Source: a virus (lineage: Duplodnaviria; Heunggongvirae; Uroviricota; Caudoviricetes). Taken from it: 46,353 nucleotides of DNA. Shown one piece after another: positions 1 to 18,122 of this stretch (positions within the stretch are counted from its first letter, which is position 1; each line of letters opens with the position of its first letter). Position numbers and translations under genes: made by a program. Location: the IMG/VR virus record IMGVR_UViG_2711768010_000018. One strand, given 5' to 3'. The notes under the pieces were generated by a model. It ran no database searches and was not told the origin of the DNA. It saw only the letters and a program-made list of their open reading frames with translations.

Positions 1-1236
1 CTACGATAACCGCGCATTCAACATGGCTACCTGTTCGTCGTTCATGTCATCAATCCACATACCGTAAATTTCATACACCATCTGCGCAGTTTCATGCCCC
101 ATCTGGCTGGCTATAAACGCCGGGTTCGCTCCTGCCGTCAACAGCCAGCAGGCAAAAGTATGCCGCGTATGGTACGGATTACGGCGGCGAATACCAGCAC
201 GTTTTACTGCTGCATTCCATCTCGCACCCAAACTGCTTACCGAGTAATAAGGTTTCTGTTTTCCGTTACACACTCTGGGCATGAAAACAAAATGCAGTTT
301 TTGCTTTTCGGTTCTGCCGTACTCCCGATGATAAAAAGTGATTTCGCTTTTGCGATGATGCCCGGTCAGTTTGTATTGCTCCTTCAGTGCTTCAAGAGCA
401 GGCTGCAGTAGTGTTACCGTCCGGATCCCCGCATTTGTTTTTGGGGGACCGAACATATCCAGTATCGTCAGGTTTCTTCTGACATTCACAACTCCCTTCT
501 CGAAATCCACATCCTCCCACGCCAGAGCAGCCAGTTCCCCGTGACGAAGCCCGGAGTATACGGCAAATTTCCACAAGTTCTGGCTCTGTCCTTTTTCACT
601 TTCCATTAATGCATTGAATTCTGTTTTAGATAACGGGTCAGGCTTTATTCTGTTTCTCTGTAATTTCTTTACTCCTTCAAATGGTTTGGTTGATATAAAT
701 CCCGACTGATACGCAAAACGTAACAACGAACAGAGCAGGGCGATATAGTTATCAACTGTGCGCACGGTTCTTCCTTTTTTGTTGGATCTTGGATTATCCA
801 GGTAAAGCGTTTCTCCATGCAGCAGTTCATTCCGGTAGTTTAAGATATCGCTATAACGAATATGCGATATCGGAGTACTCTCACAAATTATTATCCTGAG
901 TGTTTTTAATTGTGATTTCGTTTTCTTCATTGTGTTTGTTGTTAACTCTGTTTCTTTAATTTTTGTCCAGATATCACAAAGCTCCCCGAACGTTTTTATG
1001 ACCCTCGTTGTCACCATTTTTGCCCCAGTGCTGGACTGGGGAAAACGTCTTAAATACTCAAACTCACCGGAATTGATTTCATGAACTATCAACGCTCTTA
1101 AATTCCCGGCTTTTTTAATGTTACTGTTAGTAACCTCCCAGCCTTTCAATGTTTCCCGACATCGTTTTCCTCGAAACATGAACCAGATGCGAATGTATTT
1201 ACCTCGAATCTCGACACCTGTTGGTAATTTAGACAT
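1..1236 (-). CDS. intR: Tyrosine-type site-specific integrase, 411 aa, complete; attL would lie left of the window
   Basis: Minus-strand ORF with ATG at 1234-1236 and stop at 1-3; C-terminal region has the phage-integrase-type R...H..R...Y catalytic region (HTRHTFACWLL...). Length and sequence match my recollection of Rac IntR; synteny with xis/recET. Confidence 0.92.
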   Translation of the reverse strand: MSKLPTGVEIRGKYIRIWFMFRGKRCRETLKGWEVTNSNIKKAGNLRALIVHEINSGEFEYLRRFPQSSTGAKMVTTRVIKTFGELCDIWTKIKETELTTNTMKKTKSQLKTLRIIICESTPISHIRYSDILNYRNELLHGETLYLDNPRSNKKGRTVRTVDNYIALLCSLLRFAYQSGFISTKPFEGVKKLQRNRIKPDPLSKTEFNALMESEKGQSQNLWKFAVYSGLRHGELAALAWEDVDFEKGVVNVRRNLTILDMFGPPKTNAGIRTVTLLQPALEALKEQYKLTGHHRKSEITFYHREYGRTEKQKLHFVFMPRVCNGKQKPYYSVSSLGARWNAAVKRAGIRRRNPYHTRHTFACWLLTAGANPAFIASQMGHETAQMVYEIYGMWIDDMNDEQVAMLNARLS

Positions 1237-1237
1237 A

Positions 1238-1453
1238 TCATGAGTCTTTGATAAACTGATTTATCTTTGGATAGTTATACCAGATAATCCCTCGCTTACT
1301 GTCTGGCTTCCCTAAAGGAGATACTCGTTTGAAGTGGAAGCCTTCCACCCAACAGTTCTGGCGGTATGCTTCAATTTGTCTGGCCCCCAGACCAGTGCGA
1401 AGCATCAGGCCGTATTCAACCATCCACTCTTCATTAAAGATTACTTGTGCCAT
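1238..1453 (-). CDS. xisR: Excisionase-like protein (about 71 aa from internal ATG MAQVIF...)
   Basis: Small ORF immediately upstream of int on the same strand; ORF track gives a 79 aa version, the internal Met at 1453 matches the recalled YdaQ/XisR N-terminus. Confidence 0.75.
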
Positions 1454-1552
1454 CGCATCACCTCTGGCAGGCGCCAATGTTAGACTTAAATTGACGCCCG
1501 ATGTTGATTATTAATAATCAGCTATGAAGTTTTAATTTGAATACAATGCAAT

Positions 1553-1741
1553 TCACGAGGACTGAAGTTTCTCGCAATTAAAATTTATCAGTTTTACTTT
1601 CTGCTCTCTGGAAACGCCTGCTTCTTTTTTACCTGAGAGCATTTTTTCGCATTCTGATTTCGTTAGTTTAGATTTTGAATATCTTGTCCAGTTAGTAGGA
1701 GTGCCACCTTCCTTTTCAATAGTGGCGGTAATTTTATACAT
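1553..1741 (-). CDS. ydaC: Small hypothetical protein (YdaC-like), start MYKITATIEKEGG...
   Basis: ORF 1553..1813 in track; the ATG at 1741-1739 overlaps the end of the ralR-like frame (ATGTATAA overlap), typical of a coupled phage early operon. Confidence 0.55.
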   Translation of the reverse strand: MYKITATIEKEGGTPTNWTRYSKSKLTKSECEKMLSGKKEAGVSREQKVKLINFNCEKLQSS

Positions 1742-1928
1742 GAACACCTCCATTATTATTTCCAGTGGTTCGTTTATTTCATCGTTCGAGTGCTTCTTTT
1801 TCACTTCCACCATAACCGGTTCGGGATTCGCATCCGTTACACTTCGCTCGGTAATATCCTGAAATGGCTTTCACCGTTACTGATGGACAACCACAAAATG
1901 GACATGGTTTAACATTGTCATATCTCAT
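1734..1928 (-). pseudogene. ralR: Restriction-alleviation protein Lar/RalR homologue interrupted by an in-frame TGA at 1779-1781 (49 codons, stop, then 14 more sense codons to TAA at 1734-1736)
   Basis: Hand translation of the minus strand from ATG 1928: MRYDNVKPCPFCGCPSVTVKAISGYYRAKCNGCESRTGYGGSEKEALER-stop-NKRTTGNNNGGVHV-stop. Cys-rich zinc-ribbon-like N-terminus and position between ydaC and recT match RalR. Confidence 0.55.
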
Positions 1929-1983
1929 AATTTTTCTCATAAAAATATTTCAAGTTGGCGGTGCATTACACCGCCAGGCTGAA

Positions 1984-2793
1984 TTATTCCTCTGAATTAT
2001 CGATTACACTGTATTCCCCGGTTAATACAGAGGAATCTGCAGGATCGATTGTCAGTGGTTCCTTTTCATCCATTGATACTGCACGCTGGATCTCAATTGA
2101 TACGGGCAGATATTTGAACAGGCGACGAATAGCCGTTTTCTTTGCCATTTCTTCCCAGTGAGTTACCCACGGCCCGTTATTACCAGCTTTACTCTGGCTG
2201 CGCACCAGCTCAATCTGTTTGCGCGTCATAACTTCAAACTGAGTACCTCCGTCTTTCAGTCTTGCGACAGCATAGACGTGGGTAACAGGGGCATCTTCGT
2301 TTTCTCCTGGGCGGTGTATTAACTTTTCATCAAGGCCAAATTCGAAATTAAACTCGTCACCTTCACGGACAACACGGGCTGACAGGCTGGCGATTTGACC
2401 TGAACGGCGAGCCAGATCAATCATGCCGCGATAGCCAATGATTAGCTGAACGTTTTTTTTACCGCTCTTTTCGTTTTTATTACCAAAAGGCAGTAAATAT
2501 GCATGACCGAGGGCGCTACCGGGCTCAAGTCCGAGCTGTGAACACTGTACGATTGCACTGACAAAACTCATAGTGTCACAGTTTCCTAACGCCGGAACTT
2601 TACGAATTTCTGTGGTGGCGATACGGATCATACGTTCAGCCGTCATATGGCGTGGAAGAGCTGCTGCCAGTTGCTCTTTCATTGATGGCTGGTTAATAAA
2701 ACTAATCACGTCGTTATTTTTAATTGCTGCTGGTGCACGGTTTCCCTGAGTTTTTTGCAGATCGGCTTTTGCGATTGGTGGTTGCTTAGTCAT
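1984..2793 (-). CDS. recT: RecT single-strand annealing recombinase, 269 aa
   Basis: ORF track 1984..2850; internal Met [13 protein letters not shown]... gives 269 aa matching recalled Rac RecT; overlaps the recE 3' end as in the recET operon. Confidence 0.92.
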
Positions 2794-5386
2794 TTGCATA
2801 TTCCTTAGCCCAGCGGGGCAGTGATAACGTCTTAATAGCTGGCCATTCATCGGTATTGAGGCAGTCAGCCAGGGTTCGCAGATTGCGGTGATATTCCAGC
2901 TGACCTGCCAGTTTTGCTTCTTCGCCCATCATGAAAATTTCAACCGGATAACGTCCGCATTCAATAGTTGTGCTGGCAACCAGAAAAACGAAAGTTGGCT
3001 GCACTCCAAACTGTGCTTCATAACCGTCACTGTAGAATGCATCCTGAACGTGATAGCGGTAGTCGTAATAAGCGGTTTTGAATCGTTGAATATCCGCCGT
3101 AGTTTTCACGTCCATGATCCAGTGAAATTCAGGGATAATTTTGTCCGGACGGCACCGACACAAAATTGCTGTTTCAGGATCTTCCCAGTAAATTGATGAT
3201 TCAGCGTGTCCGGCGCTTTCAACAAGCCATTGCCCCAGCGGCAAAGCCATAACGCTCTGATACATGAGTTCAATTTTCCGGCCTTCTTCGGCAGTGATAA
3301 CCGTTTTTCCTGTGCTTGCGCATTCCCTCAGAAACGCTTTCTCTTCTTCTTTTCCGGAGTTTGTCCGGCGGTTAAATTCAGGTGCTACGATAAAGCGGTT
3401 ACTGAATTCTTCCGGCTCAAGTACCCGGCAGTGGAAAGCGGTTCCTAAATCGAGCGTTTTTGTCTTTGTGGTGTCCACGGGGGCATTTTTACGCCACAAA
3501 TACAGTGCCGGAGTATCAGCAATGTCATCGAGCTGAGACTTACTGACACCGGGACCCGCGTGGTAATTCTCATTCGAAATTCCGTAATAAATACCTGGCT
3601 CTATGTCTTCTACGATTACGGGATCTGCGACTTCGCCAGTTTCATCACTGCAATCGCGATGCGGATCGCTGCCAGCATTCTCATTGTGCGGATGTTCAGC
3701 GCCTTCCATTTCCTCCGGATCATTTTCCTTAGCTTCAACCTGACTCTCTTCATCGAATGTTTCCTGGTATGTTGCGTCGCCCATCACCGCACCACAGTCA
3801 GGGCAGTTATCCCCGCCAGTCTGGCCGCAGGCATTGCAGGCTATTTCCGGTTCCTGTTGCACTACTGGCTCAGGTTGATTCATATCCGGGCTGGTTTTTT
3901 CCGTTTCTGGCTGGTTCTGGTACACACAATCGCGAGTCTGGATCCCCTTTACCCATTTCGGATCGTTCGGGTCGCTAATTCCGTCAACAAATTCACCACG
4001 TGATGCAGCAAGCAATTTATCGGCATCGACAGGATTTTTTGATGGAATGTTTTTCCGGGCTTCATGGAGTTCTGCCCGCAGTTCCTGATATTTCGCATCA
4101 ACAGAATTTACCTGTGACTGAGCATCCAGCGGCTGCGTGTCCTGATGATGTTCAGTTGCGTCCGGTTCCATTGTTTCAGCCTCTCCCTGTTCAACTGCCG
4201 TTGTTCCAGATGGTTGCGGTTTTTCTTCATCATCCTGTTTTCCTTCTTCTGTTACTCGCTGCGGCATCGGGGCAGAGGAGCGACCGCAGGCAATATCCAC
4301 GATTTCCGGATCAGGGTTGGCATGATCGGTTTCAGTCAGTACTTTGTTCAGATATTCAGTGACGTGCGCGGGGATGACCTCGATCCCAATTGGTGCTTCT
4401 TTTACGGACGCAACCACGATGGCGCGGGAATAATCCAGCCCGCCAGGCATGGTGATGAATTTGTCGCGGAAAACAGAAAAGGGCGGTTTATTTTCAGCGA
4501 TAATTTCCTCAATGCGTTTAGCGTGTGCCGGATGAAGGTTATAGATGTCCAGATCCATTGAACGGGCCAGTACGCCAGTGGCTACGTCCCGCGCCAGTGA
4601 CGTCAGATCGTGTACGAAACCTTCGCCGCGATCGGTGAGGTTTCCGCCGCCAGCATTAGCACCGGAAGCCGTGCGAGTGATGTGTGAAACACGATTACCC
4701 TTCATCCACTCTTTTGTCAGCAGTCCTCGATCGGTGTAGTCAGCGTTCAGGTATGCTTCGAAAAAAGCAGTTATCAGTCCCAGGTTTGAATTACCAGGAT
4801 TAGGGAAAACTTTGTCAGTGTCACGAACCAGTTTGTGGAGTTCGCGAATTTCCAGCGGGTCGAGCAGGCTGGTTTTGTGGGAAACAGCCAGGGCAGTAAC
4901 AGCCGGTAGTTCTTCAGCCCGAGCAATGTGTAATGCCTGGAGTCCGTCGCGTGAAACGTGCGTTACCGGTTTTTCGCTGCCGTGTTGAGCAAGCCAACGA
5001 ATGGGCAGTTCCTGGCCAGAAATTGGGAGTAGCATATTCTCCTCAATCTCAGGCATGTCTTCGCCGTTGACGTTGGTATTGCCTTGATAGTGAGCGTTGT
5101 CTGGTGCTGCTCCCGGTTTTAGTTCCCATGTCATGGAGTCTTTGCTGAGTTGATAGCGTTCACTCCAGGTAAAATCGATCTCACCTTCAGCGGGCAGGTC
5201 ATTAACGACAGGAAAATTCGTGGCAACAGCTTTAAAATAGCTGCTCAGTTTTTTACCTGACTTAACGATCAGGTAGTCCAGAGTGGCACAGGTCGATTCA
5301 AAATCGTTGCTTGCCCACAGGACGACGTCAGGTTCACCGGATGATTTTTTCGCTTTCCGTAACAGGAAGAGTGGTTTTGTGCTCAT
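2786..5386 (-). CDS. recE: RecE exonuclease VIII, 866 aa
   Basis: 866 aa ORF with ATG at 5384-5386, immediately upstream of recT on the same strand; length and C-terminal nuclease region consistent with RecE. Confidence 0.92.
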
Positions 5387-5487
5387 TGTTTTTTAACCTC
5401 AACTCAGATTAAAATTCGTTTTGTTCAGTGAATGATCTTGCCGGATACACACTGTTCATAGCCTGCGCCATACGCAGGCTATTTCTT

Positions 5488-5763
5488 TCAGATTTCACCT
5501 TTTAATTTCATTGCAATTAGAGTTGCCAGAAATTCGGCTTTTTTTTCTGCGGGCAGATTCTTTCCGATATGCACCAGGCACATTTTTTTGACACCTTCAT
5601 CAAGTGTTTTTACGTTGCCTGATGGACCATCGATATCAACCACAGTGAATGGGGTTTCTTTATTTTCTGTTTTAATTACGTAGCCAATGCGCTTTCCTTC
5701 CAGATTCACCTCGTGAACAATGTCATCGGTAGTTACAACAGTGGCTTCATAATTGGTAATCAT
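5488..5763 (-). CDS. racC: RacC-like small protein (91 aa from MITNYEATVV...)
   Basis: ORF track 5488..5811; internal ATG at 5763 is preceded on the minus strand by AAGGAG (RBS). Confidence 0.8.
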   Translation of the reverse strand: MITNYEATVVTTDDIVHEVNLEGKRIGYVIKTENKETPFTVVDIDGPSGNVKTLDEGVKKMCLVHIGKNLPAEKKAEFLATLIAMKLKGEI

Positions 5764-5837
5764 GTTTTTCTCCTTAATTAAGGTTGAGCGAATACCTGCC
5801 ATTTCTGGCATAAATTCAGTTTCGAATAGTCAATTAA

Positions 5838-6008
5838 TTAAAGTTCATGTGCCATCTGGTCTTTTTCGGCACAAGCTTCACTGCAATATTTTCTCGGTTC
5901 GTCTTTTGATAAAATCCCGTGCATGAAGTGAAGCATTCTTTCAATAGCTTTGCTTTCTTCAACGTCTTTTTTGCAAAGGTGGTAAGCACATTTTATTTTC
6001 TTAGTCAT
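5838..6008 (-). CDS. ydaE: Small Cys-containing protein YdaE-like, 56 aa ([56 protein letters not shown])
   Basis: Hand-translated minus-strand ORF below the 60 aa track cut-off; its ATG overlaps the kilR stop by 1 nt (TGATG). Confidence 0.65.
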   Translation of the reverse strand: MTKKIKCAYHLCKKDVEESKAIERMLHFMHGILSKDEPRKYCSEACAEKDQMAHEL

Positions 6009-17590: not shown

Positions 17591-18122
17591 GGGCTGGTTT
17601 ATTGTATGCCAAATGATTATTAAAAAGGTTGTGTTAATAACAAGATCCGAAATAATATGCCTGCATATTTTTATCTTGCTTATATTCTGCATATTGTGCA
17701 TAGCAGGCTCATCCCTGCAATCAAAACTGTATGATGAGTATTTTTTGTTTTCCTTTTTTCCAGTCATCTGATGATGACCTGCTTCTTTTTAATCCGGATC
17801 GACATCAGTTTTTTAAGATAATTCCTGCGAGTTATATGCATAAATGCCACAAACTCCGCATTTTATGTGGTTGGGAGTTGCCGGGCGCGCAGTGAGTTTG
17901 CTAAGAAAACTCCTGCATGGTGAATCCCCCTGTGCGGTGGGGTGATACCATTAACCTTTTCTGTCGCCGACAGGTATCACGAACATTTTGTTCACCGGGA
18001 GGCACCCGGCACCATGCACTTCAATAGATTCTCTCCACATTATGGATATTCTTTCAGAATATCCCACGCAGACTTTGTGTAAATGTTAACAAATGTGCGT
18101 TTTATTTGATCTGATTCGCTGT

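Follow-up and report, generated by a model that had tools for sequence, protein, structure and literature searches.

The ralR gene near the start of the window (the whole stretch of DNA analysed here, 46,353 nucleotides of the Caudoviricetes record IMGVR_UViG_2711768010_000018) carries an in-frame TGA at codon 50, where RalR of Escherichia coli K-12 has tryptophan. We put the probability at about 80% that this is a natural Trp50-to-opal allele with a single origin and one prophage haplotype, in which RalR is inactive or strongly weakened and both the antitoxin RNA RalA and the downstream gene rcbA are intact. The allele itself is real, common, and already catalogued under its own RefSeq accession, and the toxin-antitoxin system to which it belongs is well described. 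RalR is a small zinc-ribbon protein of the Lar family, found in Rac-like prophages; for K-12 the descriptions make it a restriction-alleviation protein and also the DNase toxin in a type I toxin-antitoxin pair with RalA (PMC4041452).

Translation of the minus strand over 1734-1928 gives 49 codons (MRYDNVKPCPFCGCPSVTVKAISGYYRAKCNGCESRTGYGGSEKEALER) up to a first stop and 14 more (NKRTTGNNNGGVHV) up to a second. A script placed the ralR ATG at 1928..1926, the nonsense TGA at 1781..1779, and the terminal TAA at 1736..1734, all on the minus strand, so that the initial annotation had read the 49 Lar-like codons, the TGA, the 14 further codons, and the TAA correctly. The frame is no chance pattern, as its 49 codons match the RalR equivalog model NF007260 (126.9 bits) and the Pfam family Lar_restr_allev (39 bits). 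The mutated base of codon 50 is window position 1779, a G-to-A transition on the coding strand. The features of the region are as follows.

1-1236, minus strand: intR
Between intR and rcbA in gene order, minus strand: xisR
1553-1741, minus strand: rcbA/ydaC (DUF1187), 62 aa (PF06688, 132 bits; NF007283, 138.7 bits; annotation)
1557-1735, plus strand: RalA antitoxin sRNA (Rfam RF02694, 225.1 bits against a gathering threshold of 170, model positions 1-179 of 179)
1734..1778, minus strand: severed 3' remainder of ralR, 14 in-frame sense codons (NKRTTGNNNGGVHV) and the original TAA
1779..1928, minus strand: truncated ralR coding sequence, 49 codons and TGA (translation; RefSeq annotation of identical DNA)
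1779..1781, minus strand: nonsense codon TGA, which is TGG (Trp50) in K-12, O26, and O145 (alignments, allele counts)
1782..1784, minus strand: codon 49, CGA (Arg), synonymous with AGA in K-12 and O26 and linked to the TGA
1791-1804, minus strand: RalA pairing site in the ralR mRNA, GTGAAAAAGAAGCA, codons 42-46, a direct repeat identical to K-12
1984-2850, minus strand: recT
2786-5386, minus strand: recE

The window opens on the left arm of a Rac-like prophage, where intR, xisR, rcbA, ralR, recT, and recE lie on the minus strand. Identical DNA adjoins ttcA and dbpA in O55:H7 CB9615 and in one O157:H7 strain, which is the Rac site; prophages of this kind at that site have been named Sp10 and CP-933R (PMC4632033). 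The window and the Rac prophage of K-12 share the locus, the integration site, and the gene order recE-recT-ralR-rcbA-xisR-intR-ttcA, and their RalA and RalA pairing sites are identical. K-12 RalR, however, has 64 residues and TGG at codon 50, whereas the RalR of the window has 49 residues, TGA at this codon, and no WNKR motif. Alignment with K-12 thus bears out the earlier proposal that a Trp codon of the 64-aa RalR had been replaced by TGA. The other differences are AGA to CGA at codon 49, a run of five T in place of six, and an rcbA that is seven codons shorter, which makes four differences in 501 nt (three substitutions and one 1-nt indel), all given here on the minus strand.

1941-1945: T5 run, T6 in K-12, upstream of ralR
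1784 (codon 49): CGA, AGA in K-12, synonymous (Arg)
1779 (codon 50): TGA, TGG in K-12, Trp to stop
1555 (rcbA): TGA, AGA in K-12, rcbA 62 aa versus 69 aa

The T5 run lies directly 5' of an upstream in-frame ralR ATG (1940). It follows a hairpin in the recT-ralR interval, GGCGGTG/CACCGCC, formed by the inverted repeat 1937-1995. Scanning 1400-2100 for promoters and terminators returned nothing informative. Elsewhere inside the prophage, 17885-18071 (plus strand) matches the STnc100 sRNA family in Rfam (RF02076, 86.6 bits against a gathering threshold of 47).

The stop deletes Trp50-Asn51-x-Arg53 from RalR, and the product ends at Arg49. A word-indexed protein search returned close relatives only (19 proteins), and an exhaustive profile search recovered 2,391 members of the Lar family at E up to 0.001. 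Among the best 150 of these 2,391 members, every one of the 191 aligned domains has W50, 185 of 190 have N51, and 167 of 184 have R53; the hits were chosen with a profile that itself contains the Trp, so these counts carry some ascertainment bias. In the same 150 members, the conservation of W50 is on par with that of the zinc-binding cysteines (97-99%), namely C9 (189/190), C12 (188/193), C30 (192/196), and C33 (191/193), and past about position 56 Lar domains show no conservation. The only domains without position 50 are fragmentary matches inside long multi-domain proteins. None of 107 single-domain Lar members ends fewer than four residues after the Trp, and the shortest natural tail is four residues. 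The 49-aa product keeps all four zinc-ligand cysteines (CxxC ... CxxC) and so has the zinc-ribbon core and the beta-hairpin in common with the Lar family (PF14354, TIGR03655), but it lacks the family's invariant C-terminal Trp-Asn-x-Arg, including the Trp found in every aligned domain examined.

Family models still recognise what is left. With NF007260, whose curated cutoff is 113 bits, the 49-aa product reaches 126.9 bits and K-12 RalR with its 64 aa reaches 166. The match of the short product spans model positions 1-49 of 64 rather than the full length; the other 15 are encoded in frame after the TGA. Truncation lowers the PF14354 score from 53.5 to 39 bits (cutoff 28.6) and the TIGR03655 score from 55.3 to 40.3 bits, barely over its cutoff of 39.6. 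An AlphaFold2 model of a full-length relative, of moderate confidence (mean pLDDT 72.7, from seven sequences), has a hairpin at 17-30, one helix at 43-58, and a disordered tail at 59-64. The stop would cut this predicted helix after residue 49 and leave 7 of its 16 helical residues. No sequence relative is present in the PDB, and a fold search gave no significant match, the best being a weak zinc-ribbon resemblance at E = 0.26.

We followed the allele with 55-nt queries centred on the changed base, for which the 28-nt word requirement of megablast tells TGA from TGG. The ralR locus as a whole occurs in 1,923 genomes of the complete E. coli collection. The TGA 55-mer is present in 310 of 5,426 complete E. 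coli genomes, and all copies are identical over the 55-mer; TGG alleles form a diverse set across 1,631 genomes, of which 1,154 match at ≥99% identity, 376 at 95-99%, and 101 at 90-95%. The matches listed include O157:H7, O55:H7, O111:H8, and AR_0067 among the TGA carriers, and the other carriers among them are genomes of 4.8-5.3 Mb. Across the 501 aligned bases, neither O111 RM9322 nor AR_0067 differs from the window at any position, and both have the prophage at this ttcA site. At least 1,000 contigs of the protein collection carry the exact 49-aa protein. PLSDB contains no copy of the TGA 55-mer; within the E. coli genome collection, a plasmid-classed record accounts for one of the 310. Three phage records, ON470614.1, ON470616.1, and ON470590.1 (vB_EcoS-666R9, vB_EcoS-673R7, and vB_EcoS-613R10), carry the identical TGA allele; over the first 25 kb of the window, the match extends to 74% of the sequence, with 97.8% identity. 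PP818812.1, named Actinobacillus phage vB_Apl-pPE4, is about 91% identical to the Rac-like region (ralR, rcbA, recT, recE, and onwards); this is an unexpected host for E. coli Rac-like sequence, and the host may be mis-assigned or the record contaminated.

A reference RalR that ends at codon 49, which the initial annotation had named as a refuting observation, does exist: RefSeq WP_001443846.1 is a 49-aa RalR without a pseudogene flag. The entry is the same nonsense allele, however, and since, in addition, none of the 107 single-domain relatives ends before the Trp, it is no evidence that 49 aa is the normal length. The searched literature yielded neither a paper describing the truncated ralR allele nor an experiment on the 49-aa protein, restriction alleviation included.

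Alignments show TGG at codon 50 in K-12, in a divergent O26 copy, and in an O145 copy. The copy of O26 RM10386 resides in another prophage, near yebY, is about 93% identical, and combines AGA-TGG in ralR with TGA in rcbA. The O145:H28 strain RM12581 has CGA-TGG and a 64-aa RalR, and the exact 55-mer of this intermediate haplotype occurs in 123 genomes. Because of these three states, the most economical order of changes is AGA-TGG to CGA-TGG to CGA-TGA. R49-W50-N51-x-R53 is, moreover, invariant in the homologues of Salmonella and Citrobacter. The opposite polarity, with 49 aa as the normal length and K-12 extended, was ruled out by the TGG outgroups and by the conservation within the family.

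The full-length CGA-TGG RalR (WP_021500490.1; O145:H28 RM12581 and O157:H7 7.1_Anguil) shares with the window the CGA codon for Arg49, a 62-aa rcbA, and the ttcA site. It differs in its intact TGG and 64-aa length, in place of the TGA of the window, and its carriers have a prophage variant other than that of the window, in which the RecT-family recombinase is not the same and the 5' end of ralR has diverged. The CGA-TGG haplotype is likely to represent the immediate ancestor state at codons 49-50. From haplotype identity, rather than from a phylogeny, we infer that the TGA arose once, on this CGA(Arg49)-TGG background. By these comparisons the TGA allele is the derived state and younger than the TGG alleles, yet it has spread across lineages with one prophage haplotype. 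The suggestion that the gene is a truncated variant or pseudogene fits a TGG-to-TGA nonsense allele. The word "recent" that went with it holds only in a relative sense: the allele is derived and is identical in all copies over the 55-mer, but it is already present across several serotype lineages (O157:H7, O55:H7, O111:H8, and AR_0067).

The O157:H7 strain 7.1_Anguil has at ttcA an O145:H28-like variant of the Rac-like prophage, with a larger recE, the other RecT-family recombinase, and an intact 64-aa RalR; ralR lies at 2882-3076 in both this locus (L007) and that of O145:H28 RM12581 (L008). Since 7.1_Anguil bears a different Rac-like prophage variant, the occupant of the ttcA site is not fixed within O157:H7.

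RalA, encoded on the opposite strand beside ralR and antisense to rcbA, is full length and does not differ from K-12. Its pairing element (1619-1632) and the site in the ralR mRNA (1791-1804) are direct repeats that match at 13 of 14 positions, 11 of them contiguous, so the complementarity between the two RNAs is retained. The 16-nt element described by Guo et al. (2014) has its core at 1791-1804. The last base of the pairing site lies 10 nt upstream of the TGA. K-12 RalR is a growth-inhibiting DNase toxin; RalA neutralises it with the help of Hfq, repressing it through 16 nt of complementarity to the ralR coding region (11 nt contiguous), and non-synonymous changes in this 16-nt element, which covers codons of the helix region, abolished RalR toxicity (PMC4041452). 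In the window, RalA would be left without a working target; its sequence is constrained in any case because it is antisense to rcbA.

Database proteins show further lesions in this region. P0012 and P0015 are RalR-RcbA fusion proteins, and P0012 fits a 172-nt deletion between the direct repeats 1619-1632 and 1791-1804, which also mediate RalA pairing; as 172 equals 3n+1, such a deletion brings ralR into the frame of rcbA. W50S occurs in P0002 and a frameshift after T54 in P0005, and lesions near the WNKR motif seem recurrent.

In K-12, the rcbA ATG overlaps the ralR stop by 8 nt (ATGTATAA). The initial annotation had ydaC begin exactly at the ralR TAA; the rcbA ATG is instead at 1741..1739, within this 8-nt overlap with the end of the K-12 ralR. 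In the window, the ralR TGA lies 38 nt upstream of the rcbA ATG and there is no overlap. Translational coupling between ralR and rcbA, if any, would be lost, and the ribosome-binding site of rcbA itself (GGAGG at 1751..1747), which is unchanged, should suffice. The rcbA frame is open for 24 codons upstream of the annotated ATG, giving an 86-aa ORF from ATG 1813 (1553-1813, minus strand). This ORF runs across the 3' portion of ralR in the +1 frame; there is a further ATG at 1753.

A second stop-codon polymorphism affects rcbA at 1553-1555 (minus strand; changed base 1555), where the window has TGA, as do the O26 and O145 copies. Judged from these copies, 62 aa is the ancestral length of rcbA and the 69 aa of K-12 a derived stop-loss extension. 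RalA has its 5' end at 1557, 2 nt downstream of the changed base, and an influence of this base on RalA initiation is conceivable. Neither this polymorphism nor the RalA sRNA on the opposite strand had appeared in the initial annotation.

Taken as a nonsense allele, the locus would have the following history. A TGG-to-TGA change would have occurred once, on the CGA-TGG background, and the TGA would since have travelled with one invariant left-arm haplotype of the ttcA-integrated Rac-like prophage (Sp10 / CP-933R type), now carried by O157:H7, O55:H7, O111:H8, and other E. coli. Translation would stop after Arg49, keeping the four cysteines and the beta-hairpin and losing Trp-Asn-x-Arg and the second half of the helix. 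Because the invariant Trp-Asn-x-Arg and the second half of the only helix are missing, the most likely consequence, as far as sequence comparison can tell, is loss of function or strong weakening of the 49-aa RalR, which would apply to its toxin and anti-restriction roles alike. Because RalA, its pairing site, and rcbA are untouched, the locus would then be a toxin-antitoxin module whose toxin is disabled and whose antitoxin survives, and the TGA allele would be ordinary decay of a toxin gene. Against this, the allele persists unchanged in many genomes and its product passes the RalR and Lar cutoffs, which is compatible with some activity.

Those same observations would suit a functional short isoform, in which the zinc ribbon alone keeps toxicity or restriction alleviation and the allele is maintained: the product scores above the cutoffs of NF007260, TIGR03655, and PF14354, has no pseudogene flag in RefSeq, retains the four cysteines and the hairpin, and is encoded in 310 genomes. 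We nevertheless consider this unlikely. W50, N51, and R53 are conserved like the zinc ligands, and no natural single-domain member ends before them; the only helix is halved, and changes in the same helix abolish toxicity in K-12 (PMC4041452). The allele also shows no variation, so clonal spread and the oversampling of O157:H7 may account for its frequency instead of selection.

Less probable still, at long odds, is a leaky opal codon, at which rare decoding of UGA by tRNA-Trp would restore the exact wild-type RalR at a low level and the TGA would act as an expression attenuator. Of the three stop codons, UGA is the one most prone to readthrough in E. coli, usually through misreading by tRNA-Trp. 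The stop here is UGA followed by A, and the 14 downstream codons, the same as in K-12, are intact and in frame, with those for the conserved N51 and R53 preserved; an intact 42 nt is uninformative, however, at four differences per 501 nt. Basal UGA readthrough is expected to be low, well below 1-3%, and we found no stimulatory RNA structure downstream of the TGA (z-score -0.73). An Rfam search of 1-6000 at E up to 1 returned no recoding element, RalA being the sole match. Were the codon leaky, O157:H7 would retain in its Rac-like prophage low expression of a DNase toxin or anti-restriction factor alongside full-strength RalA.

Programmed recoding, either a +1 frameshift at CGA-UGA into the rcbA frame (yielding a RalR-RcbA fusion) or insertion of selenocysteine, has very little to recommend it. 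The rcbA frame is indeed +1 of ralR and open from 1813 to 1553 across the stop region, a rare Arg codon precedes the stop, and RalR-RcbA fusions exist in databases. These fusions (P0012, P0015) are explained by DNA deletions between the repeats, though, and the site has no slippery P-site codon, as CGA cannot re-pair on GAU, no upstream Shine-Dalgarno-like stimulator, no downstream hairpin, and no Rfam recoding element. The frameshift was ruled out on the absence of a slippery site or stimulator and on the origin of the fusions by deletion, and selenocysteine insertion and stimulated readthrough on the absence of downstream structure and of an Rfam recoding element. A sequencing or assembly error in the window, which the initial annotation had entertained and for which nothing speaks beyond the single-base difference from K-12, is excluded for practical purposes because the identical 55-mer is shared by 310 complete genomes that were assembled independently and come from many laboratories and platforms, and the same allele recurs in the three phage records and its 49-aa product on at least 1,000 contigs.

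The significance of the nonsense allele is modest, and its practical value lies in caution for enterohaemorrhagic strains and for annotation. Results obtained with K-12 RalR/RalA (DNase toxicity, fosfomycin tolerance, and restriction alleviation) should not be transferred without testing to O157:H7, O55:H7, O111:H8, and the other carriers, because their allele is without the most conserved motif of the family. Annotations need similar care, as the truncated RalR is given the name of an ordinary toxin, with no flag to mark the disruption, because the 49-aa product still scores above the cutoff of the curated model. For the biology of such modules, the locus would be a natural example of toxin-antitoxin decay in which the toxin has been hit first and the RNA antitoxin, which also overlaps rcbA, is intact.
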